Below are positions 17,968 to 62,037 of a stretch of DNA of 64,000 bases, piece by piece. This DNA comes from a virus. The translations under genes were made by a program, and so were the position numbers. The stretch lies in the IMG/VR virus record IMGVR_UViG_3300035703_000027, positions 1 through 64,000 of that record; one strand, 5' to 3'. Under the pieces are notes generated by a model. That model saw nothing but the letters and a program-made list of their open reading frames with translations, searched no databases and had not been told where the DNA came from. Every line of letters begins with the position of its first letter. Position 1 is the first letter of the stretch.

Positions 17968-20520
17968 ATGCCGTACCGTGACATGCCCATCGAGCCCTGG
18001 ATGATCGACCTGATCAAGGCATTGATTCAGGTGCGCCAGCACACCCGCAAGGATGGCACGATGGTGCGGGCCCACCAGCGGAACATCCTGACGCACGGGG
18101 AAAAGAAAGACCTCGTTGGCAAGATGGCGGCGGCGCTGCGGGCACACGGCAAGCTGGACGTGTCCGAGCACAGCGCGCACCACGTGCACAAGGCTGCGGT
18201 CGAGGTCGCGCGGAAACTTAAGCGGCACGTGATGATACACCGCGACGCGGACGGCAAGCTGTACGTGCAGCACAATCACCCAGGCAACACGCCGCACATG
18301 ATGGTGTACCCCGACCTCATGACGGCTGTGCGGGACGGCAAGGGCGGCTCGCAGGAGGTTTACCACGAAGATGCCCAGCGCGCCCTGCGGGCCAAGAAGG
18401 GCAAGCAGATAGCGGCTGAGGGCAAGCCGGCAGAGAAGAAGGCCGTGGAGGCGACGAAGCCCGCCGAGCCCGAGCACCCCGGCATGCTGGCTGACAAGCA
18501 CCTGATGACCTACGCGCAGTACCGGCAGAGCGCGTGGGGCGACCTCACGGGCCCGACCACGGTGTCGTCGCACAAGAACGCCATTCGCGAGGCGCTGAAG
18601 GCCGGCAAGGAAGTGCCCGCGCACGTGATGAACGAGCACGAGGGGTACGGCCACCAGGCGAAGAAGGAGATCGCGGAGAGCCGCGAACGGGTGAAGAACT
18701 CGGAGCGCATCGCCAAGGAGCGCGGCTGGACCACCGACTCGGACTACGCGGGCGAGAAGAAGATGGCCCGGGACGAGGCGAAGCGGGAGAAGGCGGCGGC
18801 GAAGGGCCAGAAGCCCGCGGCGCCCGAAAGCCCTATTGGGCCTGCTACCCCCGAGAGTGTGCGCCCTGGCGACGTTATCCAGCACGCGAGCAGTGGCCAT
18901 AAGTACACCGTGGTGAACCCGGGCACTGGCGATCAGTCGGCACTGGTGTATGACCACCAGGCCAAGCGCCTGACGCCTCGTTCTTTCAATAAGATGAGCC
19001 ATACCGGAGAAGTCAGAAAAGACCACCTCGGCGTCCTGGCGAACTACAAGCCCAAGCCGGCCTCATCGGGCAAAACGGGTGCAGCCACGCTGGGAAATAC
19101 CAAGCCGGGCGACTGGGTTGTGGATGGGAATGGAACACCGCGGCAGGTGGTGGAGGTTGAACCCGAATGGGAGGGTTCGCGCGGTGGTCGCATCACCACG
19201 TACAACCAGGAACTGAATCACCCCAGCGACCATTTCTTCGGCAATCATGACGAAGAAGATGAAAGCCCTTTGCGTCATTATGGGCCGGAAAAAAAGAGCC
19301 GCAAGCCTAGTCCGGCCGCGTTCGGCAACCCCACGCACGCTCTTTTGCAGCTCATCGCGGACCACCCGCGCACGGTGAAGAAGCCGGGGCTCGACTTGGA
19401 CGGTGCGGCAGCCGTTCTTGGCGGGAGCCCCGCGAGCTTCCACCCCAAGATGGGAAAGGAGCGGGCCAGAGCGCTCAAAAACCACCCTGCGTTTGGGGTG
19501 GATAGACCATCGAAAGCCCTCGACACCGTGAAGGACGCGATGGGTCAGGGCCTGCTGCAACGGGTTTCGGGGGGGGTTGCTGTCCGGGGCCTCAGCCTGA
19601 CCGAAAAGGGCAAGGCGCGCCTGGCGGAAATGTCGGATGCCGCAAGCAAAGCGGGGCCGAAGCCTGCGCCCAAGAAGATCCACACCTACGGCCTGCAACC
19701 CGATAGCCTGGTCCGGGACCACCTGCCGCCGGGGCGTGTCGGCGTGAGCCCACACCCGGTGTTTGCCCATGGCGCTGTCGAGTACGATCGCGAGCTGACG
19801 CCCGAGGAGGTCAGCCATTATGGGCTGGACCGCCTGACCAGCAAGGGGCGGTCGGAAATCCGCGAGGATCGGAAGGCTGCGGAGGTGCTGGGCAACGAGC
19901 CGAAGGACATCAACGCGGAGTACCTGCACGCCACCCTGGACATGTCGAAGGAGGACCACCCGGCGGAGTTTGCCGAGGCCCTCGAACACCTGAAGGAGCG
20001 CCGGCCCGACCTTGCCGACTCGATCGCCGCGTGGGAACAGCGAACGGGCGGCAGTGAAGCCAAGCCTGAGCCGGCAACCAAAAAGGCCGGCCCCGCCTCG
20101 TTCAGTAGCCCGACCCACGCCATGTTGCAGCTCATCGCCGACCACCCGCAAACGGCACAAAAGTCGGGGCTCAGCCCGCTCATGGTCGAATACGCCATGC
20201 GGGGCGAGCACATCGGGCGTTCCCAGGTGAAGGGCGTCGGGGAGCATCCGGCGTTCGGGCACCTCAAAGACGGAGGCGCGGGCGAGGCGGCTGACCTCGT
20301 GAGCCGCGCGCTGAGCGAGGGCCTCGTGGCTCCCAAGGCGGGCCTTTACCCAGGCCTCGGTCTTACCACTAAGGGCCAGGCGCGCCTCGCCGAGTTGGGC
20401 GGCACGCCTGCGCCACGGGCCAAGCGCGCGCCGGAGCCGGCGCCCAAGGCGGACCCGGCGTCCAGCCTCGCCAAGTCGTGGCGGTTCGCCGGGGGCGGTG
20501 CCGGCGGCGGCGACGCCTGA
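17968..20520 (+). CDS. Leader-cargo protein 1: two RQC-like winged helices and a DarA_C-like domain
   Basis: LIKALIQVRQHTRKDG leader; HPAFG...GL.LT.KG.ARL twice; YGLQP...HGAVEYDRELTPEEV. Confidence 0.75.
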   Translation: MPYRDMPIEPWMIDLIKALIQVRQHTRKDGTMVRAHQRNILTHGEKKDLVGKMAAALRAHGKLDVSEHSAHHVHKAAVEVARKLKRHVMIHRDADGKLYVQHNHPGNTPHMMVYPDLMTAVRDGKGGSQEVYHEDAQRALRAKKGKQIAAEGKPAEKKAVEATKPAEPEHPGMLADKHLMTYAQYRQSAWGDLTGPTTVSSHKNAIREALKAGKEVPAHVMNEHEGYGHQAKKEIAESRERVKNSERIAKERGWTTDSDYAGEKKMARDEAKREKAAAKGQKPAAPESPIGPATPESVRPGDVIQHASSGHKYTVVNPGTGDQSALVYDHQAKRLTPRSFNKMSHTGEVRKDHLGVLANYKPKPASSGKTGAATLGNTKPGDWVVDGNGTPRQVVEVEPEWEGSRGGRITTYNQELNHPSDHFFGNHDEEDESPLRHYGPEKKSRKPSPAAFGNPTHALLQLIADHPRTVKKPGLDLDGAAAVLGGSPASFHPKMGKERARALKNHPAFGVDRPSKALDTVKDAMGQGLLQRVSGGVAVRGLSLTEKGKARLAEMSDAASKAGPKPAPKKIHTYGLQPDSLVRDHLPPGRVGVSPHPVFAHGAVEYDRELTPEEVSHYGLDRLTSKGRSEIREDRKAAEVLGNEPKDINAEYLHATLDMSKEDHPAEFAEALEHLKERRPDLADSIAAWEQRTGGSEAKPEPATKKAGPASFSSPTHAMLQLIADHPQTAQKSGLSPLMVEYAMRGEHIGRSQVKGVGEHPAFGHLKDGGAGEAADLVSRALSEGLVAPKAGLYPGLGLTTKGQARLAELGGTPAPRAKRAPEPAPKADPASSLAKSWRFAGGGAGGGDA

Positions 20521-20536
20521 ACCCCTGCGCACGGCC

Positions 20537-21790
20537 ATGAGGCGTCACCCCACCCCCGCCGCCCCCTCCCCGGGGGTGGCGGACCTGGAGGCCCTGTTCA
20601 AGGCGATCGTCCAGGTGCGGGCGCACACCCGCAAGGACGGCTCGCAGGTGCGGGCCCACACCCGCACCATCGCGGACACGGCCGCCATCGTCGAGGGCCT
20701 CGCGCAGCGCCTGAAACACGGCGAGGCGATCGCGCACGCGACGGCGGGCTCGGCCCTCACGCTGGCGCGGCACGCGTCCACGGCCAACGAGAGGCCGGCG
20801 TTCGCCTACCGGCACCCCGCCGGGCACTGGGTCGCCACCCACGACCACCGGCACCTGCCCCACGCCCACCACCGGATCGTGGCGTCGGGGGGCAAGGCCA
20901 CGCTGACCCGCCCGGGCCAGCCGCCCAAGCCCCTGCCGGAGACGCCCCCCGAGGTGGCGCCGCTCGACCACGCCCCGCCGGCGCACGTGCACCGCGAGCT
21001 GGTGGGCAGCGGCAGCACGGGCGAGGTGTACCGCGAGGGCCAGGAGGTCGTGAAGCAGGCGCAGATGGCGTGGGGCGCCAAGGACGGCGTGAGCGTCGAG
21101 GGCCAGGTCTATGCGGCCCTGGCGGGCACGCCCGGCATCGCCGCCGGGCGGCAGGAGGGGAACCAGATTCGCCTGCCGTGGTATCCCGCCATTGTCAGCG
21201 TGGACGCCGTGAAGCCGGGCGATCGCGCGCAGTTCGCGGCGGTCGTCCGGCCCAACGTGGCGCGCATCAACCAGGCCGTCAGCGCCCTGTCCGAGCGCGG
21301 GTACTACTACGCCGACCCCCTCCAGTTCGGCATGCGCGACGGCCACATGGATCTGCTCGACTTCAGCAACGTGCACGAGAAGCCGGTGGACAGCCCCACG
21401 GACGATCCCCGGAGCCTGAACCTAACCCTGCTGGGGATGTTCTACAAGGAGTTCGGGCTGCCCGACGAGGCCAAGAAGGTCGGCGTGGCAGGGCGGGCCC
21501 GGAAGGCGGTCATGTACTTCGTGTGGAACAAGGGACGCGACCTCCACGACCTGATGGTGCAGGTGCACGGAGGGCCCATCAAGGGCCAGCACGAGCGCCT
21601 GCTCGACGAGCTGCAAGGCGAGCCGCCGCGCTGCGTCTACTACGGCGACGCCGCGCCCGAGGGGCTGCCAGCGGGCGCCGCGCACGTCGAGGTGGACGGC
21701 GTGCACGTGGTGCTGTCGGGCAAACCGCTGCCACCCGAGGCGATCGCGCGGGGCGGGCTGACGCCGCTGGTGCACCCGACCAAGGCGTAG
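20537..21790 (+). CDS. Leader-cargo protein 2: protein-kinase-like domain
   Basis: LFKAIVQVRAHTRKDG leader; GSGSTGEVY, VVK, YYADP, LLDFS. Confidence 0.7.
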   Translation: MRRHPTPAAPSPGVADLEALFKAIVQVRAHTRKDGSQVRAHTRTIADTAAIVEGLAQRLKHGEAIAHATAGSALTLARHASTANERPAFAYRHPAGHWVATHDHRHLPHAHHRIVASGGKATLTRPGQPPKPLPETPPEVAPLDHAPPAHVHRELVGSGSTGEVYREGQEVVKQAQMAWGAKDGVSVEGQVYAALAGTPGIAAGRQEGNQIRLPWYPAIVSVDAVKPGDRAQFAAVVRPNVARINQAVSALSERGYYYADPLQFGMRDGHMDLLDFSNVHEKPVDSPTDDPRSLNLTLLGMFYKEFGLPDEAKKVGVAGRARKAVMYFVWNKGRDLHDLMVQVHGGPIKGQHERLLDELQGEPPRCVYYGDAAPEGLPAGAAHVEVDGVHVVLSGKPLPPEAIARGGLTPLVHPTKA

Positions 21791-21798: not shown

Positions 21799-21838
21799 GG
21801 CAAACCGTGGCCGCGGGGCGCCGGCCCGGGGCTACGAT
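21799..21838 (+). promoter_or_regulatory. Class B promoter-like motif
   Basis: GGCAA-N29-TACGAT. Confidence 0.75.
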
Positions 21839-21856: not shown

Positions 21857-23584
21857 ATGCTGCTCGTCCCCGTGCGCGCGTCGCTGCCCCTGCCGGCGTT
21901 CTTCGACCTGTGGAAGGCCATGATCCAGGTCAAGGCCCACACCCGCCGGGACGGCACCCAGGTGCGGGCGCACACCCGTAACATCCAGTCCCATGCGGAG
22001 CGCAAAGAGCTGGTGACGGCCCTCGCGCGCAAGATGGCCGCGGGCGAGCACACGCGGCACGCCACCCTGGCGTCCGCGGTGGGGGCCGCGCGGCACGCGT
22101 CCAAGGTCAACGGGAAGGCCGTGCACGTGTACGAACACCCGGAAGGTGGCTGGGTGGCGACGCACGACGAGACGCACACGGAGGGCCACGACGAGCGCAT
22201 CGTCGCGCACAAGGGCAAGGCGCGCCTGCACCGGCGCGGCGAGGCCTCGCTCGGGCTTGCGCACCTCAAGGGGCCCATCGCGGAGCACGTCGAGAAGCCC
22301 GCGCCGGCGCCCAAGGTGAAGAAGCCACGGCCCAAGGCCGCCCCCAGGCAGCGCCCGGAGGCCGCCGCGAAGCAGACGCCTGCGGTCAACCCCAAGCTCG
22401 CGGGCCTCGACAACGTGCTGCACCACGTCGAGGGCAGCCACACCGTGGCCGCCATCCACCCGTCAAAGATCCAGGTGGACGCCAACGCCTACCAGTTCAA
22501 GGGCGGCGGAGACTCCCACGGCGTGACGGACCGGCTGCGGAGCGTCCAGAAGTGGGACTACATGGCAGGCGCCATGAACCCGGTCATGGTGCACAAGCGC
22601 AACGACGGCAGCATGTACGTGGTGGACGGCCACCAGCGCACCGGACTTGCCCGGCGCCTGCTGGCCGAGGGGCACGACGTGCCGGCGCTGAACGCCGTGG
22701 TGTTCCACGAGGCCGACGGCTACACCGTGGGCGAGATGAAGCGCATGGGGGCGCTCGCCAACATCCAGCAGGGCACGGGCACGGCGGTGGACGTTGCCAA
22801 GGTGCTGCGGGAGCGCCCGCTGTCCGAGGCGGAGCGCGCCACCATCCCGGCGGGGTCGAACGAGGCGTTCAAGGACGGCGAGGATCTCGCGCGGCTGTCG
22901 GACGAGGCCTTCACCTACGTGGCGAACCAGAAGCTGCACCACGACCCCAAGAAGAACGCCGCGTTCGGCGCCATCGTCGCGCGGGCCTTCAGTGAGCCCG
23001 GGCAGCAGCTCGCGGCGCTGCAAGAGCTGGCGAAGGACAGGCCGGCCGGACGGCAGGAAGCCGAAGACATGGTGCGGGAGATCAAGGCGGCGGGGTTCGC
23101 GTCGGCAAACCAGGCCACGCTGTTCGGCGTCGAACAGTACCAGGAAACCCTGCACAAGCCCATCGCCAAGATCCTGGGCAACGTGCGCCGGCGCCTGGCC
23201 GACGAGAAAAACGCGCTGGGCAACGCCATCCGCAACCGGGCCCGGCTGGAGGCGCGCGGCAGCCAGATTGACGCCGGCCAGGCCGCCGAAGGCAAGCAGC
23301 AGGCGGACGCGTTGGTGGGCGTGCTGAATGTGGTACACGACAAGTCGGGCGCGTTCCGCGAGGCGCTCAAGGCGTCCGCGCGCGGCCTGAAGGAGGGAGC
23401 GTTCAATGAGCGACAAGCAACCGATGCCGTCATCAGCGCCCTCGAACGAGAGTTCGAGCAGCTCAAACCGGGTGGTGCAGGGCCTTCAGATTTACCAGGC
23501 GGTGGGCGAGGCGATGAAGAAGGTCGCGAAGAAGGCCCGCGGCCGGTCGTCATAGACCCCGGCCAGGCGTCCATGTTCGGCTGA
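21857..23584 (+). CDS. Leader-cargo protein 3: ParB/Srx-like domain
   Basis: LWKAMIQVKAHTRRDG leader; IQVDANAYQFK...KWD...MYVVDGHQRTG. Confidence 0.75.
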   Translation: MLLVPVRASLPLPAFFDLWKAMIQVKAHTRRDGTQVRAHTRNIQSHAERKELVTALARKMAAGEHTRHATLASAVGAARHASKVNGKAVHVYEHPEGGWVATHDETHTEGHDERIVAHKGKARLHRRGEASLGLAHLKGPIAEHVEKPAPAPKVKKPRPKAAPRQRPEAAAKQTPAVNPKLAGLDNVLHHVEGSHTVAAIHPSKIQVDANAYQFKGGGDSHGVTDRLRSVQKWDYMAGAMNPVMVHKRNDGSMYVVDGHQRTGLARRLLAEGHDVPALNAVVFHEADGYTVGEMKRMGALANIQQGTGTAVDVAKVLRERPLSEAERATIPAGSNEAFKDGEDLARLSDEAFTYVANQKLHHDPKKNAAFGAIVARAFSEPGQQLAALQELAKDRPAGRQEAEDMVREIKAAGFASANQATLFGVEQYQETLHKPIAKILGNVRRRLADEKNALGNAIRNRARLEARGSQIDAGQAAEGKQQADALVGVLNVVHDKSGAFREALKASARGLKEGAFNERQATDAVISALEREFEQLKPGGAGPSDLPGGGRGDEEGREEGPRPVVIDPGQASMFG

Positions 23585-23605
23585 GCGCCAGCCGCTTCCG
23601 GGCGT

Positions 23606-23645
23606 GGCAAAACGCGACCGCGGGGCGCCACGCCGGGGCTACGAT
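23606..23645 (+). promoter_or_regulatory. Class B promoter-like motif
   Basis: GGCAA-N29-TACGAT. Confidence 0.75.
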
Positions 23646-23664
23646 GGGGCCGGAGGATTGCCCC

Positions 23665-25467
23665 ATGCTGCTCGTCCCCGCGCGCCCGTCGCTGTCTTTG
23701 CTGGCCTTCTTCGACCTCTGGAAGGCCATGATCCAGGTCAAGGCGCACACGCGCAAGGACGGGACCCAGGTCAAGGCGCATACGCGCAACATCCAGTCGC
23801 GCGCCGAGCGCAAGGAGCTGGTGGCGGCCCTCGCGCGCAAGATGGCGGACGGCGCGCACACGCGCCACGCCACGCTGGCGTCGGCCGTCGGGGCAGCCCG
23901 GTACGCCTCGAAGGCGAACGGCAAGGCCGTGCACGTGTACGAGCATGCCGAGGGCGGGTGGGTCGCGACCCATGACGCCAGCCACACCGAGGGCCACGAC
24001 GAGAAGATTGTGGCCCACAAGGGCAAGGCGCGCCTGCATCGGGCCGGCGAGGCCTCGCGCAGCCTGGCGCACCTCAAGGGACCGATCGCGGAGCACGTCG
24101 CAAAGCCGGCGCCCGCGCCCAAGGTGAAGCCGGCCCGGCCCAAGGCGGAGAAGAAACCCGCCCCGGAGGCCACGCCCAAGCGCTACACCTACGGCCTCCA
24201 GATGCGGCCCCCGTCGATCGGGGCGGTGCCGAAGGACTACGTGGGGCTGGAGCCGCCCAACGAGCACTTCCGGCACGGCCTCATTCACTACGATCGCGAG
24301 CTGACGCCCGAGGAGGTCAAGAGCTACGAACTGGACCACCTCACGAGCAAGGGGCGCTCGCAGGCGCGCGAGGACATGAAGGCCTCGAACGTGTTCCTCG
24401 GCACGGAGCCGATGAAGATCACGGCCGAGCACCTGGACGCCACCCTCGACATGGCGAAGGAGGACAATCCGGGCGCGTTCGACGAGGCCCTGGAGCACCT
24501 CAAGGAACGCCGGCCGGACCTCGCCGGGGCGATCGCGGCGTGGGAGAAGAAAGCGGGCGGGGCGCCGGAGCCCGCGCAAGGCGACGCGCCTGCCGAGACG
24601 GCTATGGCCCGGGGCTGGCCCGGCGCGGCTGCGCAGGACAACGGCAAGGCCGGGAAGCCGGTGCACCCGAGCACCTTGGCGGCGGGCGACATGCTGATGG
24701 GACAGCACCCGGGTGGTCAATTCCAGACCCTGGTGGTGCTGGCAGACCCCACCGTGAAGCCCGAAGGCCAGTTCGTGATCGAGAATGAGGACGGCCGTCA
24801 GCTCAGGGTGGACGGCGGGTTTTTCAAGCGGCCTGGCATATCCTGGACGCACGCCGGCCAGGCCTACCCCGAGGCCACGCCGCAGGCCGCGGGGCAGGAC
24901 TCCCAGGTGCGCGCCATCGTCGAGCGGAGCGGCGGCACGCTGCTGTCCGGCCCCTCGCCCAAGGTGCGCACCCCCAAGTACGACAAGCTTGCGACCGACA
25001 AGTCCGGCCGCTTCCACATCTACGACCAGCGGCTCGCGCTCGTGGGGCGGGAAAGGCCCAACCTGCTGTCCAAGAAGGCCGAGGCCTTCGGCAGTGCCGA
25101 TGTCCCCTACGTCAAGGCCGACCCCAAGGCGATGCGGATGGTCAGCGAGGTCGCGTTCTTCCCTGCGACAGCATCCGACAAGGCGCACAAGCTTCAGGGG
25201 ATCACGGCGCTGTCAGACGGCACCATGGTCAACACCGGCCACTTGCAAGCGCTGCGCAGCGCGTTCCCCGACGCCACGCTGCACGTGCTGCCGCCAGGCG
25301 ACCCGCTGGCCGGCAACGCCTACACCACGATGGTGTATGCCATCGGGAGGATGGGCGAACTGGTCGGGTTTATGGGGTCGGTGGGCGCGGAGGAGCCGCA
25401 CCTGCGACAGTTGAGCGCCGCCCTCAAGGGAGCGACCACCAGCCGCCCCGCGCCCGTCGCACGCTGA
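23665..25467 (+). CDS. Leader-cargo protein 4: DarA_C-like domain and unknown C-terminal domain
   Basis: Leader; YTYGLQMRPPSIGAVPK...RHGLIHYDRELTPEEVKSYEL. Confidence 0.75.
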   Translation: MLLVPARPSLSLLAFFDLWKAMIQVKAHTRKDGTQVKAHTRNIQSRAERKELVAALARKMADGAHTRHATLASAVGAARYASKANGKAVHVYEHAEGGWVATHDASHTEGHDEKIVAHKGKARLHRAGEASRSLAHLKGPIAEHVAKPAPAPKVKPARPKAEKKPAPEATPKRYTYGLQMRPPSIGAVPKDYVGLEPPNEHFRHGLIHYDRELTPEEVKSYELDHLTSKGRSQAREDMKASNVFLGTEPMKITAEHLDATLDMAKEDNPGAFDEALEHLKERRPDLAGAIAAWEKKAGGAPEPAQGDAPAETAMARGWPGAAAQDNGKAGKPVHPSTLAAGDMLMGQHPGGQFQTLVVLADPTVKPEGQFVIENEDGRQLRVDGGFFKRPGISWTHAGQAYPEATPQAAGQDSQVRAIVERSGGTLLSGPSPKVRTPKYDKLATDKSGRFHIYDQRLALVGRERPNLLSKKAEAFGSADVPYVKADPKAMRMVSEVAFFPATASDKAHKLQGITALSDGTMVNTGHLQALRSAFPDATLHVLPPGDPLAGNAYTTMVYAIGRMGELVGFMGSVGAEEPHLRQLSAALKGATTSRPAPVAR

Positions 25468-25471
25468 CGCC

Positions 25472-28400
25472 ATGACCCGCATCCACCTGCCCCTCATCGC
25501 CAACCCCGATCGCCGCCTGGCCCTGCTCAAGGCCATGGTGCAAGTCCGCACGCACACGCGGGCGGACGGCGCCACGGTGCAGGGCTACACCCGCGAGCAG
25601 CAGACCGCCCCGGAGCGCGCCGAGCTGGTGGACCACCTCGCGCGGACCCTCAAGGCCGGCGGCCGGGAGGCCGTGCAGGTGCTCGGGCCCGCGGACGCCC
25701 ACCGCACCGCCGTCGCGATCGCCCGCAAGAACCGCAAGCCGGTGCACCTGCACCACGCCCGGGACGCGTGGCGCTTCAGCCACCGCAAGCCGCCCGGGCG
25801 GGCCTGCCACGAGGTGCACCGCCACCACACGGTGGCCCACGCGGCCGGCGAGGCCCCGCGCAAGCTGACGCACCGCCAGGCGCGCGAGGCCCTCAAGGCC
25901 GCGCACCAGCCACCGCCGGCCCCGGTGCCGGGGGCGGAGACGACCCGGCTGGCGCACGTGTACCACCACGTCCCCGGCTCGCACACCCTCGCGGCGGTGG
26001 AGCCCGGGCGCATCGAGGTGGACCCGGGCGCCTACCAGCACCGCGCGGGCGCCAACGCCCGCGGGGAGGTGCGCGCCTGGGACGGCCCCGAGGCATGGGA
26101 TCCGGCGCACAGCTACAAGCCCGTGCTGCTGCACCGGCGCCGGAACGGCAAGCTCTACATGGTGGACGGCCACCACCGCCTCGCGCAGGCCCACCGGCTG
26201 CTCAAGGCCGGGCACGCCCTGCCGCCCATGAACGCCGTCATCCTGAGCGAGAAGGACGGTTACACCCCCGCGCACATGCGCGCCATCAACGCGCTGGCGG
26301 CCCAGAGGAGCGACGACGATGCCCAAACAACCCCACCCCAAGGTCCAGCAGGGGCTGGCAATCTACCAGCAGGTGCAGGCGGCCCTGACACCCAAGCCGG
26401 CTGGCAGCCCGTCGGCGCCGGCAACACCGGCACGGTCTACCGGGACGGCGCCGAGGTCGTAAAGCGCACCGTGACCACGGACGGCGCCCGGACGGCCGAG
26501 GGCGACGTGTACGACGCCCTGCGGGGCACCCCGGGCATCGCCCCGGGCTACCGGGACGGCGACGCCATCCGGCTGCCCCACTACCCCACGATCCTGAGCA
26601 CGGACGCCGTGCCGGCCGAGGCGCGCGCGCGGCACGCCGCGGCCCTACGGGCGAACGCCCCGCGCCTCAACGCGGCGGTTCATGCCCTCTCCGAGGCCGG
26701 CTACAACTACGCGGACCCGTTGCAGGCCGGGCTCGACGCCGACGGCACGCTGCACCTGCTCGACTTCAGCAACGCGCACCGGCGCGGCCCCGCGGACCTG
26801 ACGCACGCCGACAACAACGGCTACCTCCAGGCCTACTACCGGGCCTTCGGGCTCGACGACCTCGCGGCGCAGGTGGGCGCCGCCCACCACGCCCGGCGCG
26901 CCATGGGGGCGATCGCCGGGGCGGAGCGGGAGCTGGCGGACGTGGGACTCTCCGAGGACGAGCTGGCGGCGGAGCGGGACCTCACGGCGCAGATGCACGG
27001 GGCGCACATCCACGCCCACCACGACCGGATGCGGCGCGAGTTGGCGGGCGAGCCGCGTTACAGTTACGTGGGCACGGCGCACCCGGGCAAGCTGCCCATC
27101 GGGACCACGCACGTCGAGGCCCCGGGCGGGCACCACGTCGTGCTGGCCGCGCACCCGCTGGACGCGGAGGCGATCGCGCGGCATGGGTTGCTGCCGGTGG
27201 AACATCCGGCCGTGACGCCCGAGGGGGGCGCGGCCGACGCCATGGCCCTCGCGCGCCTGGAGGCCCTGCACCAGGCCGAGCAGGGGCAGGCGGCGCCGGT
27301 GGCCGACGCGCTGGAGAAGGGCGGGCTCGGAGCCGACGCGCGCGGCCTGAGCGTGGACGCGCTGCTGGACATGCTCAAGGCCTTGATTCAGGTGAAGGCC
27401 CACACCCGCCGGGACGGGACGCAGGTGCGGGCCCACACGCGCAACATCCAGTCGCGGGCGGAGCGTCAGGAGCTGGTGGACGCGCTGGCGCGCCGGATGG
27501 CCGAAGGGGATCACACGCGGCACGCCACGCTGGCGTCAGCCGTCGGGGCGGCCCGGCACGCGTCGAAGGTCAACGGGAAGGCCGTGCACGTGTACGAACA
27601 CGCCGAGGGCGGCTGGGTCGCGACGCACGACGCCAGCCACACCGAGGGCCACGACGAGCGGATCGTGGCGGTGAAGGGCCGGGCGCGGCTGCACCGGGCG
27701 GGCGAGGCATCGCGAAGCCTGGCGCACCTCAAGGGGCCCATCGCCGAGCACGTCGAGAAGCCCGCGCCCGAGCCGAGGGTCAAGAAGCCCCGGCCGAAGG
27801 TGGAGAAGAAGCCCGCCCTGCCGGATACGCCAGCGGGCCGGCTCGCTGGCGCGTACTTGGCGACCGCCCACGAGAGCCGGCGCGAGGCGGAAAGCCGCTT
27901 CTACGAGCTGCTTGAGAAGCGCGAGGCGAGTGGCGAGAAGGTGCCTACCACGGGTGGCCTGCCCACCTACTACAACGACGCCACGGGGCAGTTCCTGGAG
28001 GCGCTTGAGGCGGACATGGAGGCGCATGGCGGTGAGGTGTCGCGCCATGTTGAGGCAGCGGGGTTCCGCCTGCTGGATCGCGACGAGGCGAGCCGATTGG
28101 CCCAGGCCTACGACCAGTCGCAGCAAGAGCGGGCGTGGGAGTCGGAGATGGCCCGGTACACGCCGCAAAGCCTAGCAGACGAGTACGAGGCCCACGCAGG
28201 TGCAACCGACGCCGAGGCCCGGGAGAACTACAGTGCCCAAGAGGCGCGTCGCGCTGAACAGGGCGCGCAGATGAAAGGGGCCAAGCTGGAGTTCATGCAC
28301 GCCGAAACCGGGCGCGCCATGTATGTGGCAGATGAGGACAGCAAGCGCATGGGCGACGAGCTGCTGCGCAGGGGCTGGCGTCCAATTTCATGGGAGGAGA

Positions 28401-30025
28401 AGGCCGCACTCAGCCAAGCCAAGCGCGAGGAACGCAAGGCCGCATGGACAGCTTCCACGCTGGACGAGGTGATGTCCGGCAGGCCGGGCCGGTACAGCCT
28501 GTGGCGCGGCCAGGCGGACAAGCGCGAGGGGGCGCCCCTTGGGGCTGACGAGGCCAACCACCGGCACCTTAACATTCTCACCACGTCGTACACGGCAAGC
28601 GGACAGCACGCCGGCAAACCGGTCGCCGAAGAACGGCTGTTTACGGTGGGGGGGCGCGTCTCAAAGATGGACGTGGAGCTGCGGCGCCCCTTCGTGGGGG
28701 ACGCTGCCGGCCTTGAATCGCTGCGAGCGAAGTACCTCGCGACCAATTCGGAGATCGAAAAACTCCAGAAGGAGGGCGTCGTGGCGCTGCCGGCGTGGCT
28801 GCTGGCGGTCTTGAAGCGTGATGGCTTCGACGCGTTCGTAATGGGCAAAAAGGATGGCGCCGAGATGGCGGTGTTCCCGGACAAGCCGAGCACGGCCTTC
28901 GACCGCGTGGATGACTTCAAGCCCCCGGCTGCCGTTAAACTGTTTACGGGGCTCGGGCTTCGGATTACGCCCCAGGAGGCAGAGCTGGCCGGGCTTGCGT
29001 CACCTATTACGATGACCGCCACGGAGTGGGGCAAGCACCTGGGGGTCAAGCTCGGCAGTCCCCGATGGGGCACCGTGATGCGCGTGCATCGTGATGCCGT
29101 TGTGGAGGCGGTCAAGTCGGGCGCGGAGGTGCCGCGCCGGGTCAAGCGGTCGGTTTTCCGTTACGCTGGCGACGATCGCCCGGTGGGGCTCCCTGCGGGC
29201 GAAGTGCGCACCCGCCTGACTGAATTGCAGAAGCAGCAACAGGCAGAGCGGTCCGAACTAGAGCGGCGCCGCAAAGAACTGGGCAATCAGATTCTGGCCC
29301 ACAAGGGCGGCGCCATGCACAGCGATCCAGGAACCAAGTGGGACGACACGTATCGCAACTTGGTTGAGCGGGAAACCGAGATGTGTCGGGAAAGTTCCCG
29401 CATGTACCGCAAGCATAAAGAGGAGCAACGGGAGGCGGTGATGTGTCCCGAGAAGCTGGAAATGGTCGTCAGCTATGACGATCACCCGGAGGCTCGGCCG
29501 CACCACGAGACGTGGAGGCAAGCAGTAAACCAGTTTGCGCGCATGGTTGGCCCCCGTCCCGGGGTTCACTGCGTGCAGATGCGGTATGACGAAAGCTCTT
29601 TCTGGGGCGACCGCGCAAGCTATAGCGATCACGGCCTGTGCGTGAACCTCAAGGGCGCTGATGGCGACATAGATGGAACCATCGTGCATGAGCTTGGGCA
29701 CTGGTTTGAGGTCAACGCCCCCGAAGTCCTTGAAAAGGCCATCGCGTTCCATCGCCGGCGGACGGAAGGCGAAAAGTGGGTGACGATGAACGAGGCCGAA
29801 CCCGGCGCCAACTACCATGAAACCGAGCACACCAAGGTGGACAATTTTTTCCGCCCCTACGTGGGTAAGCTGTATGGCGACTACCTGAAAGACGATGGAA
29901 AGATTACGGCCACCGAGATCGTCTCGATGGGCATCGAGCTGATGTGGCGCAGCCCGTCTTACTTCGCCGAAACCGATCCCGATTACTTCGACTTTATCTG
30001 GGGCCTGCTGCGGAGGACGAAATGA
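25472..30025 (+). CDS. Leader-cargo polyprotein 5: leader, ParB-like, kinase-like, second leader, ART-like, zincin peptidase
   Basis: Leader at N-terminus and again at about 27370; VDGHHR; GAGNTGTVY...LLDFS; LWRGQ...GFDAFV; HELGH...EIVSMG. Confidence 0.78.
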   Translation: MTRIHLPLIANPDRRLALLKAMVQVRTHTRADGATVQGYTREQQTAPERAELVDHLARTLKAGGREAVQVLGPADAHRTAVAIARKNRKPVHLHHARDAWRFSHRKPPGRACHEVHRHHTVAHAAGEAPRKLTHRQAREALKAAHQPPPAPVPGAETTRLAHVYHHVPGSHTLAAVEPGRIEVDPGAYQHRAGANARGEVRAWDGPEAWDPAHSYKPVLLHRRRNGKLYMVDGHHRLAQAHRLLKAGHALPPMNAVILSEKDGYTPAHMRAINALAAQRSDDDAQTTPPQGPAGAGNLPAGAGGPDTQAGWQPVGAGNTGTVYRDGAEVVKRTVTTDGARTAEGDVYDALRGTPGIAPGYRDGDAIRLPHYPTILSTDAVPAEARARHAAALRANAPRLNAAVHALSEAGYNYADPLQAGLDADGTLHLLDFSNAHRRGPADLTHADNNGYLQAYYRAFGLDDLAAQVGAAHHARRAMGAIAGAERELADVGLSEDELAAERDLTAQMHGAHIHAHHDRMRRELAGEPRYSYVGTAHPGKLPIGTTHVEAPGGHHVVLAAHPLDAEAIARHGLLPVEHPAVTPEGGAADAMALARLEALHQAEQGQAAPVADALEKGGLGADARGLSVDALLDMLKALIQVKAHTRRDGTQVRAHTRNIQSRAERQELVDALARRMAEGDHTRHATLASAVGAARHASKVNGKAVHVYEHAEGGWVATHDASHTEGHDERIVAVKGRARLHRAGEASRSLAHLKGPIAEHVEKPAPEPRVKKPRPKVEKKPALPDTPAGRLAGAYLATAHESRREAESRFYELLEKREASGEKVPTTGGLPTYYNDATGQFLEALEADMEAHGGEVSRHVEAAGFRLLDRDEASRLAQAYDQSQQERAWESEMARYTPQSLADEYEAHAGATDAEARENYSAQEARRAEQGAQMKGAKLEFMHAETGRAMYVADEDSKRMGDELLRRGWRPISWEEKAALSQAKREERKAAWTASTLDEVMSGRPGRYSLWRGQADKREGAPLGADEANHRHLNILTTSYTASGQHAGKPVAEERLFTVGGRVSKMDVELRRPFVGDAAGLESLRAKYLATNSEIEKLQKEGVVALPAWLLAVLKRDGFDAFVMGKKDGAEMAVFPDKPSTAFDRVDDFKPPAAVKLFTGLGLRITPQEAELAGLASPITMTATEWGKHLGVKLGSPRWGTVMRVHRDAVVEAVKSGAEVPRRVKRSVFRYAGDDRPVGLPAGEVRTRLTELQKQQQAERSELERRRKELGNQILAHKGGAMHSDPGTKWDDTYRNLVERETEMCRESSRMYRKHKEEQREAVMCPEKLEMVVSYDDHPEARPHHETWRQAVNQFARMVGPRPGVHCVQMRYDESSFWGDRASYSDHGLCVNLKGADGDIDGTIVHELGHWFEVNAPEVLEKAIAFHRRRTEGEKWVTMNEAEPGANYHETEHTKVDNFFRPYVGKLYGDYLKDDGKITATEIVSMGIELMWRSPSYFAETDPDYFDFIWGLLRRTK

Positions 30026-30291
30026 TCGTTGTGGCGCTCGACGGGACCGAATACCGGCTCAGGGACGGCAAGTGGCTGGGGCTGCCGGGGCGCACCCTCA
30101 AGCTGCTGGAATCCACCCGCGACCTGTGGCAGCTCGACATGCCGGAAGGGACCGGGCCGGGCGTGCTGCCAACCCAGCGGGATCGCGACAGGGCGTGGGC
30201 GAAGTGGGTGGTGCGCCACTACGGCGGCGCCCTGGTGCACGAGTCCCCCCTTCCGCCCCACGCCCCGGAGCGCCCCGGCGTCGTTTACTGA
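30022..30291 (+). CDS. Small partner protein after zincin 1 (immunity-like position)
   Basis: ATGA overlap with polyprotein 5; ends PERPGVVY. Confidence 0.7.
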   Translation: MIVVALDGTEYRLRDGKWLGLPGRTLKLLESTRDLWQLDMPEGTGPGVLPTQRDRDRAWAKWVVRHYGGALVHESPLPPHAPERPGVVY

Positions 30292-40713: not shown

Positions 40714-40753
40714 GGCAAACACCCGGCCCCCGTGGCGCGCGCTGCGCTACGCT
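40714..40753 (+). promoter_or_regulatory. Class B promoter-like motif
   Basis: GGCAA-N29-TACGCT. Confidence 0.72.
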
Positions 40754-43599: not shown

Positions 43600-43639
43600 G
43601 GCAAGGGGGAGCCTCACGGGGCGCCCCCGCCCTTACGAT
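43600..43639 (+). promoter_or_regulatory. Class B promoter-like motif
   Basis: GGCAA-N29-TACGAT. Confidence 0.72.
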
Positions 43640-45532: not shown

Positions 45533-45572
45533 GGCAACTCGGGGCCCGGGCAGCCGCTTCCGGCCCTACGAT
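45533..45572 (+). promoter_or_regulatory. Class B promoter-like motif
   Basis: GGCAA-N29-TACGAT. Confidence 0.75.
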
Positions 45573-48429: not shown

Positions 48430-48469
48430 GGCAATCCGCCGCGAAGCGCGCACGGGGCCGTGTTACGGT
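48430..48469 (+). promoter_or_regulatory. Class B promoter-like motif upstream of the sigma gene
   Basis: GGCAA-N29-TACGGT. Confidence 0.68.
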
Positions 48470-48489: not shown

Positions 48490-50334
48490 ATGCCCCACCT
48501 GCTGCGATCCGTTGCCGATCACCTCGCCGGGTCCACCCCGCTCCAACGGGTCGCCGGCGCGCTGGCCGGCCCCCTCGAAAAGGGCCTCGTCCACACCTAC
48601 ACGCGCCACATGCACGGCGTCGCCCAGGTGGTGCCCGAGCACATGCGCGCGGACCCCGCCGCCATCATCGGGATGCTTGCCAAGCGGCACCACCACCAGC
48701 TCAGCTTCGACCTGTTCGGCGGTGGCGGCGGCGGGGCGCCCCCGGCCGTCCAGCCCCACGGCGCCGGCAACGGTGGCACGGTGCAGCGCGACAGCATGTA
48801 CCGGGTGCAGGACCAGGAGCCGGCCGTCGGCAGCATCGCGCAGGCCACCTTCAAGCCCGAGCCCGCGCCCCCGGCCACGCAGACGCACCGTCCGCGCGTG
48901 CCCCAGGGGCTGCACCTGCCGGCGGAGAAGGCCGAGGCCCGCAAGGTGCTGGAGGGGGCGCACCGGGACCTGGTGACGGCCCGCCAGCTCGAAGAGGACG
49001 CCAAGCTGGAGCCCGGCCGCCGCGAGGCGCTGCTCGCGCGCGCCACCACGCTGCGCGCGCGGCTCGCCGACGCGGCCGGCCCGGACTACGAGCGCGCCGT
49101 CGAGGGCAAGCTCGTGGCGAACTACGCCCCGGAGATTGGCGGCGTGGTGGCCGACTGGGCCCACAAGGTGGGCGTGCCCGTCGAGCGGGACGCGCACGGC
49201 CGGCCGTCGGGGAACTTCGGCCTGCTGCATGCCGAGGCGCTCGACGCCGCCTACCAGGCGGTGCACCGCTACCGCACCCACAACCGCACCGGCCTGCTGA
49301 AGCTCGTGAAGGGCCAGGTGGAGCAGCGCCTGTTCCGGCACTGGAAGCGGGCCGTCGGCAAGGGCGCGTTCAACATGGGCCAGAACGAGGCCGAGGACGC
49401 GAGCAAGGTCGCACGCTACACCAGCGCGCACGCGTCGGCCTACGGCGAGCAGCCCACGGACGAGCAGGTGGCGGAGGCCCTCGGGATGACGCCCAAGCGG
49501 GTCGCCGACATCAAGCGGCAGGCGATCGCCGCGCTCGGGGACAGCCTGAACCAGACCAGCGAGGACGGCAGCGAGCTGGGAGAGCGGGTGGGCAGCAGCC
49601 GCCAGGACCCGGCCCGGCGGGCGGAGGCCGACGAACTGTCCGACGCCGTGCATACCGCGCTTGCGGAGCTGGATCCGCTGAAGCGCGCCACGGTCCGGGT
49701 GGCGCACGGCATGGGGCTCGACGCGGACACGGCCGCGCACCTCGCCGCGCACACGCAGCTCGACGACCTCGCGGCGGCCTTGCAGGACCACGCCCACCTC
49801 GCCGAGCCCGACGCCCGCGCGACGGCCGCGGTGGGGGCGGTCCAGTGGCGCGCCCCGGGGGACGCGGCGCTGCGGGTGCGGGCGGCGCTGCACCTGCTGG
49901 ACCACGGCGCGGACCCGGTGCAGGCCTTGCAGGCGCCCGAGCAGCGGGAGGATGGGGACAAGCACGACATTTCCGTCTCCGAGGTCTACCGGCGCGTCGG
50001 GCTGAAGCCGGCCAACAGCGGCAGCGTGCTGCGGTCTGCTGAGCAGGCGCTGGCCCGGCACCCGGCGCTGGTCGGCTTCCGGGACGCGCTGCACAAAAGC
50101 TTGTTCGCGCCCATTGGCACGCCGTGGGGGTCGCTGCTCGCGGCGATCGCCCCTGCGGCCCTCCTTGCGAGCCTGCCGGCGCCCTTGGCAGCCCTCGCGC
50201 CCTCGCTCCTCGAAGATGATCGGCACGGCTGGGCGCTGGTGCGGGAGGATCGCGCCGCGGAGGCTGCCATTCTGGCGGCGGCGGCCCAGGGGGGTGGGGA
50301 TGAAACGGTTCACGGTGACGGCGCGGGGCGTTAG
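48490..50334 (+). CDS. Leader-cargo protein 11: sigma70-family (group-3-like) sigma factor with divergent leader
   Basis: LEKGLVHTYTRH..G..VVPEHMR leader; region 2 LHAEALDAAYQAVHRY; region 3 GEQPTDEQVAEALGMTPKRV...SLNQ; region 4 AVHTALAELDPLKRATVRVAHGM, then an insertion, then ISVSEVYRRVG...AEQALARH. Confidence 0.72.
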   Translation: MPHLLRSVADHLAGSTPLQRVAGALAGPLEKGLVHTYTRHMHGVAQVVPEHMRADPAAIIGMLAKRHHHQLSFDLFGGGGGGAPPAVQPHGAGNGGTVQRDSMYRVQDQEPAVGSIAQATFKPEPAPPATQTHRPRVPQGLHLPAEKAEARKVLEGAHRDLVTARQLEEDAKLEPGRREALLARATTLRARLADAAGPDYERAVEGKLVANYAPEIGGVVADWAHKVGVPVERDAHGRPSGNFGLLHAEALDAAYQAVHRYRTHNRTGLLKLVKGQVEQRLFRHWKRAVGKGAFNMGQNEAEDASKVARYTSAHASAYGEQPTDEQVAEALGMTPKRVADIKRQAIAALGDSLNQTSEDGSELGERVGSSRQDPARRAEADELSDAVHTALAELDPLKRATVRVAHGMGLDADTAAHLAAHTQLDDLAAALQDHAHLAEPDARATAAVGAVQWRAPGDAALRVRAALHLLDHGADPVQALQAPEQREDGDKHDISVSEVYRRVGLKPANSGSVLRSAEQALARHPALVGFRDALHKSLFAPIGTPWGSLLAAIAPAALLASLPAPLAALAPSLLEDDRHGWALVREDRAAEAAILAAAAQGGGDETVHGDGAGR

Positions 50335-59286: not shown

Positions 59287-59312
59287 CCATCCCGGGCGCC
59301 AGAGAATTATGC
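59287..59312 (-). promoter_or_regulatory. Class A promoter-like motif
   Basis: GCATA-ATTCTCTGGCGCCCG-GGATGG. Confidence 0.6.
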
Positions 59313-59336
59313 GGGCCGCGGCCCGGGGGAGGCGTC

Positions 59337-59663: not shown

Positions 59664-59693
59664 TCGCACGCTGCGCGCCTGCTGCGTGCAGGC

Positions 59694-59732
59694 GGCAATT
59701 CAGGCGCCGGCGGGCGTGCGGGGCTCTAGAAT
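59694..59732 (+). promoter_or_regulatory. Class B promoter-like motif
   Basis: GGCAA-N28-TAGAAT. Confidence 0.68.
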
Positions 59733-59751
59733 GGGAGCGGAGGAACGCCCC

Positions 59752-62037
59752 ATGCTGCTGGTCCCGGTTCGCTCATCCCTCTCGCTCTCGGCCTACCTGA
59801 CGCTGCTCAAGGCCCTGATCCAGGTCAAGGCCCACACCCGCAAGGATGGGACGCGGGTCCAGGCGCACACGCGCAACATCCAGTCGAGGGCCGAACGCCG
59901 CGAGCTGGTCGAGGCCCTCGCCAAGAAGATGGGGAGCGGCGAGCACACGCGCCACGCCACCCTGGCGTCCGCGGTCGGCGCGGCGCGCTTCGCCTCGCGC
60001 GCCAACGGCAAGGCCGTGCACGTCTACGAGCACGCCGACGGCGGCTGGGTGGCGACGCACGACGAGACGCACACCGAGGGCCACGACGAGAAGATCGTGG
60101 CCCACAAGGGCAAGGCGCGGCTGCACCGGGCGGGCGAGGCCTCGCGCAGCCTGGCGCACCTCAAGGGTCCGATTGCCGAGCACGTCGAGAAGCCGTTTGT
60201 GCCCAAGGTCAAGCCGGCCCGCCCCAAGGCGGAAAAGAAGCCGGCCCCGACGCCCGTGGCCCCCGCCCCGGGCAAGGTGGACTTCGGCGCGGAGAAAACG
60301 GTCAAGGGGGAGACGCACGTCCCCGTGACGGTGGACGGGCAGATGACGCACGCCTTGACGAAGGACCGCCAGACGGGAGTCTGGGCGTTGCAGCGCGTGG
60401 ACGAGCGCGACCACCAGGGGCCGGTCAAGATGACGCTGGTGCGGGAGGGGATGACCCGAAAGGAAGCCCAGCAGTACGCCGCCGCCCTCGCCGGGAACGA
60501 TGCGGGCGAGCTGGCCCGCGTGCACCAGTACGATCGCGGCGTGCCGGTGTCGGAGATGCCGCAACTCAAGCAGATGCGGGATTTCTCCGCACTGCTTACT
60601 GGGCAGGATGGAGAGGGGCGCACCTGGTACACGCAGGGGTACTACCTCTCAACGGCCAATCAGGATGACTACCTCCTGCCAGGCGCCCAAGAGCAACCGA
60701 TGGTGCGCAGTGCCGGTGTGGTGGATGAGTTCATCCCAGCCGCCACCACCCCGGTCCACCCGGTCGCCTTCAAGACCTCGCCGACCAACGGCCGAACAGG
60801 CGCCGTCGTGTTCGACAACGGCGCCGTTGCAAGCGCCGAATACGTCCAGCGGCTGATGAAGCTGCACCCCGGGGCCTCCTGGCACTACGGCACCACCGCG
60901 ACCTCGGTTGCCGGCGTCCCGATCAACGGCGTGGGCGACGGCAGCTTCCCGTTCGTGCTGAAGGACCGCCACGGCGCGAACGTCGCCATGCTGATGCCGC
61001 TGAAAGCAGAGGCCGGCAAGGACGGCCTCAAGGAGCTGGCCGACCAGGTGGCCGCCGGCTACCGCCCGGCCAGCATAAAGCCCGAAAAGCCCGGATATGA
61101 GGGGCCGGAGGGTAAAGATATGACCGACGACAACGCAGCGGAGAGGAAGGCAGGCAGTGACCTCCGGGCCGCCGTGGCGGACAAGAACGGCGCGGTCGCG
61201 AAGGCACGCATCCGCCTGCACGACGACGTGGCGGACATCTACGCCGTCAAGCACCCCGACGGGCACATCACCGCCACCGTGCACTGGGTCGAAGGACAAA
61301 AGGCGCGCACTCAGCCCCACAACAGCTTCAACCTGGAGGGGTTCACGTCCAGCTTCAGCGGACCCAGGAAGTGGGACACCATCACGGCGTTCAAGCGCGA
61401 CCTGGATCGCAAGTTCGGGGGGAAGGGCTACGTTCATCCGAACTGGCGCGACGCCCACTACGAAAGCGAGCTTGAGGTACGCGACTTCAGCGAGGAGCAC
61501 GCCAGGGCCGTCGCGATCAAGGAAAAGCGGCGCAGGGCCGAAGCAGACGCCTACCGAGCAGGTGAGTCGGGTCGCAATCAAAGCCAGCAGTCCCGTCCCG
61601 TCAACTTGGCCGAGGAGTTAGCCAGGCAGGCAGCCGTGGCGACCGGCGATCGCGCGGACCTCAAGCACCCGGCCACGCGCAAGGCCGTGGTGGACGACCT
61701 TAAGAAGCTCGACGTGCACACCCTGGCGCCGCGGGCGCGGTGGAACAACATCGACCCCGACGTGACGGGCAAGCAGCTCACCGCGCGCGTCCAGCTCAAG
61801 CGGGCCGTGCCGCACCAGATGACGTACATCAACCCGAACACGGGCGAGAACCAGGGCCGTCTGGTCGAGCATGACGGCTACGATCTTCAGTGGCACCCCG
61901 ATCGGGGCGTCTCGCTCAAGAACGACGATGGCAAGAAGGTCTGGTCCGACCCGGCGGCCACGAAGGACCCCGTGGCTGCCGTGAAGGCCGCGCTTCAGGC
62001 CGCCAACGCGCTGCCGGATATGACCTACAAGTCCTGA
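59752..62037 (+). CDS. Leader-cargo protein 12 (unassigned cargo; possible clamp-like subdomain)
   Basis: LLKALIQVKAHTRKDG leader followed by lower-GC cargo. Confidence 0.75.
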   Translation: MLLVPVRSSLSLSAYLTLLKALIQVKAHTRKDGTRVQAHTRNIQSRAERRELVEALAKKMGSGEHTRHATLASAVGAARFASRANGKAVHVYEHADGGWVATHDETHTEGHDEKIVAHKGKARLHRAGEASRSLAHLKGPIAEHVEKPFVPKVKPARPKAEKKPAPTPVAPAPGKVDFGAEKTVKGETHVPVTVDGQMTHALTKDRQTGVWALQRVDERDHQGPVKMTLVREGMTRKEAQQYAAALAGNDAGELARVHQYDRGVPVSEMPQLKQMRDFSALLTGQDGEGRTWYTQGYYLSTANQDDYLLPGAQEQPMVRSAGVVDEFIPAATTPVHPVAFKTSPTNGRTGAVVFDNGAVASAEYVQRLMKLHPGASWHYGTTATSVAGVPINGVGDGSFPFVLKDRHGANVAMLMPLKAEAGKDGLKELADQVAAGYRPASIKPEKPGYEGPEGKDMTDDNAAERKAGSDLRAAVADKNGAVAKARIRLHDDVADIYAVKHPDGHITATVHWVEGQKARTQPHNSFNLEGFTSSFSGPRKWDTITAFKRDLDRKFGGKGYVHPNWRDAHYESELEVRDFSEEHARAVAIKEKRRRAEADAYRAGESGRNQSQQSRPVNLAEELARQAAVATGDRADLKHPATRKAVVDDLKKLDVHTLAPRARWNNIDPDVTGKQLTARVQLKRAVPHQMTYINPNTGENQGRLVEHDGYDLQWHPDRGVSLKNDDGKKVWSDPAATKDPVAAVKAALQAANALPDMTYKS

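Follow-up and report, generated by a model that had tools for sequence, protein, structure and literature searches.

Why does one phage place the same basic domain in front of a whole series of differing proteins? This question is raised by a block of genes in IMG/VR record IMGVR_UViG_3300035703_000027, a contig of 121,189 bp with a CheckV completeness of ~80%, whose first 64,000 nucleotides are referred to below as the window. Eleven open reading frames (ORFs) of the window, named here by their start positions, encode proteins in which a basic leader of ~130–150 residues precedes a variable cargo. We favor, with moderate confidence, the reading that the products of these 11 genes are internal head proteins, taken up by the procapsid and injected along with the DNA, as an unbundled version of the polyvalent anti-defense and takeover proteins that other phages have. 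Of all phage weapons, proteins injected from the head arrive in the host first and, to our knowledge, how proteins are chosen for packaging is known in only a few model phages, namely T4, P1 and those of the MuF/gp7 type.

The extent of the family was delineated by tblastn with one leader and by a profile search against all six-frame ORFs of the 121-kb contig. Twelve leader domains were found in 11 ORFs, with profile E-values of about 1e-39 to 1e-65, and the same six-frame search revealed no copy at contig positions 64–121 kb. Two copies are present in gene 25472, starting near residues ~20 (25472a) and ~636 (25472b), and the copy of gene 30362 is internal, at residue ~134. The parts follow in a constant order, comprising a pre-peptide, the basic leader, a linker rich in Pro, Ala and Lys, the variable cargo and, in some of the proteins, a C-terminal tail of 14–21 residues. 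Eight copies are close to one another (61–83% identical to the first sequence) and four (17968, 20537, 25472a and 34974) are divergent. A preliminary description of the window had counted 12 leader genes filling roughly half of it. The share, measured at 28,980 nt or 45% of the window (24% of the contig), agrees with this, but the count becomes 11 genes with 12 domains. The gene that drops out is the sigma-like gene 48490, which as a candidate member (alignment A2) gave no match at E ≤ 10 with hmmsearch --max and a probability of 0.2% with hhalign. Its N-terminus has a motif site, PLEK↓GLVHTYTRH (the arrow, here and below, marks a putative protease cut), and the hairpin-like string behind PLEK↓G was seen by eye only.

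The leader is strongly basic (pI 10.1–10.7), contains 7–11% His and starts with a hairpin of the form (V/I)-x-V-(K/R)-x-H-T-R-K-D-G-T-x-V-x-x-H-x-R. An AlphaFold2 model based on a 19-sequence alignment (mean pLDDT 77, core near 90) predicts a compact α/β fold in which an N-terminal β-hairpin, two helices and then two more hairpins precede a disordered tail. No known family was recognized for the leader in Pfam, in a PDB sequence-profile search (best E 0.31) or in the ESM Atlas. Foldseek comparison of the model with PDB and BFVD gave nothing significant (E > 0.1), and the best VIA-align scores (Z 4.6 for ribosomal protein bL17, ~3 for R3H/KhpB-type folds) were treated as noise. The earlier statement that no described family has this character thus holds for the leader domain itself, as judged from Pfam and the structure searches; the concept of targeting signals and that of polyvalent or MuF-fused effectors are already known. 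At the nucleotide level the leader copies are 75–95% identical, and the eight close ones have a median dS of 0.51 and a median dN/dS of 0.31. These values mark the copies as old paralogs on which purifying selection acts.

The most specific indirect evidence for a head-internal location comes from a protease-type motif, listed as [LIMV]-x-K-[ASG] and written below as h-x-K↓(A/S/G), since only proteins inside the prohead meet the prohead protease. The invariant Lys of the leader alignment falls in this motif in 19 of 19 sequences, exactly where the disordered pre-peptide gives way to the first strand and the leader starts. The pre-peptide is 12–26 residues long, ends at L-x-K↓A and is kept even in a distant phage (MLLVPVRSSLSLSAYLTLLK here, MSLYVPLRSNLSLSELVDLVK in protein P0023). 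Each of the three internal leaders (30362, 25472b and P0021 of contig L016) has a second site 12–25 residues upstream. The same motif is found on proteins of the head itself. The acidic scaffold-like protein, which includes a run of ~40 nearly pure Asp/Glu residues, has seven sites against 0.59 expected (p 3e-6), and the major capsid protein (MCP) has EMRK↓SLATG ~47–56 residues from its start, with K↓A/S kept throughout the MCP family. Near the C-terminus, 14–21 residues from the end, a site is present in four cargo proteins (0.46 expected, p 0.001), and the conserved tail that follows it (..PSS.LL..R.) is found again in orthologs, among them the LPD1 protein of the distant contig L018. None of the 12 copies has a site between leader and cargo, and a site inside the leader occurs in one of the 12 (gene 17968, HVHK↓A).

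This pattern suggests that the leader proteins are processed by the prohead protease, from which we infer that the pre-peptide and the C-terminal tail would be removed and the basic domain would stay on the cargo. Since the putative cut would fall where the leader begins and not behind it, the targeting signal that is cleaved off may in truth be the pre-peptide, by analogy with T4 and P1, and the basic domain is probably left on the mature cargo. Our literature search for published Lys-specific prohead-protease sites returned nothing usable; gp5 of HK97 is cleaved after Lys103.

Two short elements of the leader region were recorded separately. In the predicted disordered linker after the leader fold, a stretch of 12–15 residues (SLAHLKGPIAEHVEKP; window 22240–22300 and equivalents) is strongly conserved, more so than a merely passive linker should be, and lies outside the h-x-K↓(A/S/G) motif; it could serve as a binding motif or be cut by another protease. 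The ~20-residue core of the hairpin (window 21929–21985 and equivalents), V-x-V-x-(G/A)-(H/Y)-T-R-K-D-G-T-x-V-x-(G/A)-(H/Y)-T-R, also occurs by itself among second-tier matches, where it is repeated in tandem in many small proteins that bacteria secrete and that have signal peptides (P0026–P0040). This core corresponds to no Pfam family, and a literature search with the motif strings returned nothing.

A second shared feature lies upstream of the genes. A promoter-like motif with an unusually long, fixed spacer, (T)GGCAA-N28/29-TAnnnT, has 17 sites on the contig against 2.0 expected, which span window positions 12371–62821 and contig positions 80743–108102. It precedes the portal gene, the sheath gene, other structural-module genes, a class II tRNA-synthetase-like gene, gene 48490 and eight leader genes (Table 1). 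Ten genes had been placed behind the motif of the portal gene, and this was reproduced for the eight leader genes and 48490 but not for 34974, which has a looser variant only; genes 20537 and 25472, as previously stated, directly follow the preceding gene. The sigma-like product of 48490 may be the cognate factor of this motif.

The cargos were compared with Pfam and PHROG profiles and searched for short motifs. Among the labels assigned earlier, DarA_C, LPD1, SNF2, ParB-like, zincin and, weakly, sigma were recovered (by profiles, PHROGs and HExxH motifs), and the kinase-like label has a GxGxxG...VVK motif as its basis; for the RQC-like, ART-like and LPD5 labels there was no Pfam match at E ≤ 0.5. 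The cargos had also been called completely different. Their sequences do diverge past the linker, as is evident from the nucleotide identity profile, but several share modules pairwise: the zincin is common to 25472b and 30362, the ParB-type module to 21857 and 25472a, the Gly-loop to 20537 and 25472a and DarA_C to 17968 and 23665, and genes 43658 and 45591 are paralogs. HExxH zincin motifs are present in three cargos. For DarA_C (PF18789), with a gathering threshold of 27 bits, 23665 passes (36.3) and 17968 fails (21.9). Gene 25472 (1517 aa) and gene 40773 contain several modules and most other leader genes one or two. Searches of PDB sequences with three unannotated cargos gave no match. The cargo of 45591 has α/β, helical and Tudor/SH3-like barrel parts in its AlphaFold2 model, for which Foldseek, run with the whole model, returned only a weak match to Tudor/SH3-like barrels (E 0.03). 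No Phage_Mu_F domain was matched in Pfam on the leader proteins at E ≤ 0.01, or on the isolated leader at E ≤ 1.

Modules characteristic of polyvalent proteins are thus present in the form of DarA_C, LPD1, SNF2, the ParB-type phrog_10691 and the zincin, and polyvalent proteins with such modules have been argued to be packaged in virions (Iyer et al. 2017, PMC5512222). The genomic setting corresponds as well, as the contig has a portal–terminase module and virion genes, and the leader block lies near the portal, opening 2.6 kb downstream of the portal gene.

Relatives of the leader are rare. A profile of the 12 leaders, compared with 1.84 billion representative proteins, gave ~25 full-length matches, of which 11 were the window's own and the rest belonged to close relatives and to two distant phage contigs, L016 and L018; a search of 5.8e9 clusters gave 13 full-length matches. 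No relatives were found in a phage GenBank collection (DNA, tblastn) or in IMG/VR (leader and portal patterns), from which the window's own record was possibly excluded. On the 75-kb contig L016, four leader genes stand in a row, with NUDIX, ParB-type, SNF2 and one unannotated cargo, and the locus stops short of any portal gene. On the 97.6-kb contig L018, three leader genes stand downstream of the portal gene, and their cargos are ParB-type plus DarA_C, zincin-type and LPD1. The leader block is thus near the portal in two of three lineages, this contig and L018. The profile search proposed in the preliminary description thereby recovered proteins with the same leader and differing cargos.

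Comparison of these relatives indicates that, from phage to phage, a given type of cargo is not tied to one subtype of leader, as judged from BLAST of the relatives' proteins against those of the window and from a maximum-likelihood tree of the leaders, which supports the uncoupling but not the direction of swap events. The ParB-type cargo follows a clade I leader in 21857 and a clade II leader in 25472a, P0022 and P0025. The SNF2 cargo has a clade III leader here and a clade I leader in L016, where the latter is sister to the leader of the zincin protein of the same contig (support 100/99). Conversely, the LPD1 cargo has a clade I leader here and a clade III leader in L018. P0025 has ParB-type and DarA_C cargos behind one leader, which here belong to two leader genes, and cargo modules were gained or lost in P0006, P0016 and P0017; P0006, a relative of 59752, is without cargo residues ~160–435. 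The SNF2 ortholog of 34974 in a distant phage, P0018, is free of the intein that interrupts the window's copy. The eight close leaders of this genome resemble each other more than they resemble the leaders of cargo orthologs elsewhere, a sign of gene conversion or of co-evolution with a single partner common to them.

A possible further exchange was noted in a freshwater relative that is ~96% identical to the window (run X2). From window position 27814, past the second leader of gene 25472, its sequence does not match for ~1.7 kb, after which another leader-like stretch appears; this relative may carry a different cargo there. Read cover over 27883–30100 was next to none in runs X2 and X3 and zero in X4, from which no conclusion was drawn.

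In the mechanism that we propose, the leader genes would be transcribed from the promoter class of the portal, sheath and other structural-module genes, and the pre-peptide, the basic domain or both would recruit the protein into the assembling prohead. A plausible dock would be the very acidic core of the scaffold, whose pI of 4.1 complements the 10.1–10.7 of the leaders, although this docking is the weakest step of the scheme. The prohead protease, which would cut scaffold and MCP after h-x-K, would also trim both the pre-peptide and the C-terminal tail from the leader proteins, whose basic domain would remain attached and sit with the packaged DNA until ejection.

The leader had previously been taken for a portable address tag. 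That idea fits the portal adjacency, the promoter class, the types of cargo, the uncoupling of leader and cargo and the motif shared with scaffold and MCP, but the signal may instead be the pre-peptide, as the putative cleavage site precedes the leader. We regard as doubtful the strongest version of the idea, in which the leader would be a self-sufficient loading domain that docks on the scaffold, basic on acidic, and passes to the packaged DNA after scaffold degradation; any protein fused behind it would be encapsidated and co-ejected, and promoter plus leader would form the head of a cassette by which the phage lineage takes up and swaps effectors.

Several points weigh against packaging and injection of the leader proteins. 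The genes for MCP, protease and scaffold are without the strict promoter motif, so that the "late" character of the promoter class is one that we infer, and gene 59752 stands 12 kb from the other leader genes amid early-looking genes on the minus strand. The model of the leader bears no resemblance to a known capsid-, portal- or DNA-binding fold. The protease specificity is deduced from motif enrichment, and conservation of the invariant Lys could instead reflect a structural need. The leader tree has ~150 columns, one highly supported branch and several long terminal branches, and the phage is known from metagenomes only.

Part of the same evidence lends itself to a division of roles, a tentative alternative in which the pre-peptide alone would target the capsid and the basic domain would work after injection, for example by binding the incoming phage DNA, the host nucleoid or RNA and so holding every effector at one place in the cell. 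The putative cut ahead of the domain and the lack of a leader–cargo site in 12 of 12 copies accord with it, as do the conservation of the pre-peptide even in the distant phage of P0023, the basic character of the leader (pI ~10.5) and the length of the known T4 and P1 signals, 10–30 residues (PMC9024508, PMC5694885). The weak structural neighbors of the leader are small RNA-binding α/β folds (bL17, R3H and KhpB, Z 3–4.6), yet these matches are within noise, and the likeness of leaders within the genome fits a shared phage-encoded partner equally well as a host or DNA target. Pre-peptide and domain always co-occur, so that their roles cannot be separated by sequence alone. A more remote alternative, which we consider quite unlikely, is that the proteins are not packaged but act late inside the cell, with the leader as a localization, regulatory or oligomerization domain that, for example, tethers the enzymes to one another or to phage DNA during its replication. 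The evidence for virion association is indeed indirect, a basic domain could bind DNA in the cell, and SNF2, ParB-type and NUDIX enzymes have intracellular roles too. Intracellular action, however, leaves unexplained the protease-type motif common to scaffold and MCP and conserved at both protein ends, the portal proximity on this contig and on L018, the DarA_C and LPD1 content and the similarity of one cargo to phrog_1926, which is annotated as "released from the phage upon host infection".

An origin of the repeats as assembly chimeras, or as a very recent duplication without function, is effectively refuted. DNA nearly identical to the window was found in a subsurface metagenome, its likely source, and relatives with ~96% identity occur in freshwater metagenomes of other studies. 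Short-read unitigs of the likely source sample (run X1) do break inside leader copies, as expected of repeats. The copies nevertheless differ in 5–25% of their nucleotides, with the dS and dN/dS values given above, and X2 contigs, from a different study, span whole leaders with both flanks (record 10 covers 22022–24572 and record 9 covers 25470–27814). An independent Logan assembly repeats the order of 30362, a staphylococcal-nuclease homolog and 34974, and the same architecture is present in two distant phages.

Head packaging of the leader proteins, our preferred reading, was compared with known systems. The capsid-targeting sequence (CTS) of T4, found on IPI–III and Alt, is N-terminal, comprises 10–20 residues and is cut after L/I-x-E; it is removed by the prohead protease, its motif also occurs on scaffold and capsid protein, and it is portable to foreign cargo (PMC5694885, PMC9024508). 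The leader proteins are alike in having a short N-terminal peptide before a motif that is also on scaffold and MCP, here known from sequence alone. They differ in the L-x-K at the end of the pre-peptide and in the folded basic domain of ~130 residues that invariably comes after it, apparently kept on the cargo, and they have no sequence similarity to the T4 signal. In P1, a myophage, the head contains large anti-restriction enzymes, of which DarB has an N-terminal signal of 30 residues (PMC9024508), and DarA-Hdf contact both capsid and DNA (PMC9024508, PMC12810830). Cargo families are common to both systems (DarA_C, DdrB-type ParB and helicase), but P1 loads its proteins stepwise via dedicated helpers and without a shared folded leader, whereas one domain is present on 11 genes here.

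Polyvalent and MuF- or portal-fused effectors (PMC5512222) consist of the same modules (zincin MPTase-like, DarA_C, LPD1, ParB, SNF2 and NUDIX), are encoded beside the portal–terminase module and are predicted to be injected. There, 2–15 modules are joined in each giant polypeptide or placed behind a MuF or portal domain; here, they are spread over 11 genes, each with a leader. In the giant phages SPN3US and phiKZ, many proteins of the head interior belong to paralog families and have N-terminal extensions of 111–254 residues that are thought to target them (PMC10052503, PMC5694885). Whole proteins are paralogous in those phages, whereas here the leader alone is common, and their extension is degraded at several A/S/G-x-E sites, whereas 11 of 12 copies here have no candidate site in or after the leader, on the assumption that the inferred [LIMV]xK[ASG] motif is the real protease specificity. 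What sets the present proteins apart is a folded, basic, previously undescribed leader with its own pre-peptide and promoter on 11 genes, and a polyvalent repertoire that is distributed and not contained in one giant protein.

If the leader proteins are packaged, they would add to the known modes of selection a loading domain that is folded and can be reused, as on the 11 different enzymes of this one phage. They would also yield a catalog of candidate anti-defense and takeover effectors, several of them without a known family, a predicted protease recognition motif and a candidate tag with which heterologous proteins might be brought into capsids. Were the leader in addition self-sufficient, it would amount to a polymorphic-toxin-like system for internal phage proteins and to a direct tag for protein delivery. 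If the leader proteins are not packaged, the finding shrinks to a new basic domain restricted to this lineage.

Table 1 Genes and sequence elements of the contig (window positions, unless given as contig positions; arrows mark putative protease cuts)
Feature	Position	Strand	Domains, motifs and matches	Strict promoter-like motif
Large terminase (TerL)	514-2571
Portal gene	13747..15387	+	Pfam Phage_portal E 7e-26; phrog_12 E 6e-48	13681-13719 (GGCAA-N28-TACGCT)
NUDIX hydrolase gene, small, without leader	15576..15983	+	Pfam NUDIX E 8e-23; between portal and leader block
627-aa Glu/Ala/Pro/Lys-rich protein, without leader	15992..17875	+	Directly after portal and NUDIX genes
Leader gene 1	17968..20520	+	Clade II (divergent) leader ~18016-18420, E 4e-46; weak DarA_C cargo; C-terminal tail SLAK↓SWRFAGGG...	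17887-17926
Leader gene 2	20537..21790	+	Leader ~20600-20980, E 1e-42; cargo with GSGSTGEVY...VVK Gly-loop motif, kinase-like by motif only; ortholog P0015
Leader gene 3	21857..23584	+	Canonical clade I leader ~21914-22342; ParB-type polyvalent-protein cargo (phrog_10691 E 4e-28; ParB-like phrog_1033)	21799-21838
Leader gene 4	23665..25467	+	Canonical leader ~23722-24150; DarA_C cargo (Pfam DarA_C 36.3 bits; phrog_1926 E 3e-11)	23606-23645
Leader gene 5	25472..30025	+	1517 aa, two leaders; phrog_33618 E 3e-30
Gene 25472, copy a	~25529-25960		Divergent leader, then ParB-type and Gly-loop modules
Gene 25472, copy b	~27377-27805		Canonical leader, then zincin (HExxH) module; second h-x-K↓G site ALEK↓GG 20 residues ahead
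Leader gene 6	30362..33271	+	Extra N-terminal domain (phrog_2859), RLEK↓GG, pre-peptide, internal canonical leader ~30761-31186, zincin (HExxH) cargo; orthologs P0010, P0021	30305-30344
Leader gene 7	34974..40460	+	Clade III (divergent) leader ~35037-35450, E 7e-39; SNF2 helicase cargo (Pfam SNF2-rel_dom, SNF2 E 8e-21; Helicase_C)
Gene 34974, intein	~38106-39104		LAGLIDADG-type homing endonuclease (Hom_end_hint, Hom_end); interrupts SNF2 cargo
Leader gene 8	40773..43598	+	Canonical leader ~40809-41237; HExxH and LPD1 cargo (Pfam LPD1 82 bits); C-terminal tail TLKK↓ALALAGPSSGMLFRRWW	40714-40753
Leader gene 9	43658..45529	+	Canonical leader ~43697-44125; unannotated cargo, paralog of gene 10; C-terminal tail ELRK↓ALEGPSSRLLVARL	43600-43639
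Leader gene 10	45591..47297	+	Canonical leader ~45633-46058; unannotated cargo; C-terminal tail PMAK↓ALGLPP...SSRLFARFLG	45533-45572
Sigma-like gene	48490..50334	+	Sigma70_r3 24.5 bits, below cut-off; phrog_351 E 6e-6	48430-48469
Leader gene 11	59752..62037	+	Canonical leader ~59809-60234; unannotated 600-aa cargo	59694-59732
Scaffold-like protein, 252 aa, pI 4.1	contig 75433-76191 (L013:11433-12191), outside window		ORF between protease and MCP

The remaining genes of the contig are those of a large myophage, as follows from the terminase, portal, head, sheath and baseplate genes. The head maturation protease (phrog_1028, E 9e-33), the scaffold and an SU10-type MCP are encoded at contig 74.5–77.7 kb, beyond the window; genes for a tail sheath, for baseplate proteins and for a tape-measure-like protein that contains a peptidase domain are present on the contig as well. 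The GC content is ~72%, which would suit an actinobacterial host.

Two genes without a leader lie between the portal and the leader block. NUDIX, which is here a separate gene, is fused in relatives into leader-bearing or adjoining proteins. The product of 15992..17875, for which Pfam and PHROG searches gave no match, starts with MRAGIDMLRK↓AVAGG and thus has a protease-type motif, MLRK↓AV, ten residues from its start; judged from this motif, it may be a further internal head protein without a leader.

Other genes of the window include one similar to queuine tRNA-ribosyltransferases (4407–5498, phrog_887), possibly a DNA-modification enzyme of the DpdA type, a second SNF2 helicase gene, which has no leader (5830–8565), and the class II aminoacyl-tRNA-synthetase-like gene (12462–13451). 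The staphylococcal-nuclease homolog is encoded at 33638–34498, between leader genes 30362 and 34974.

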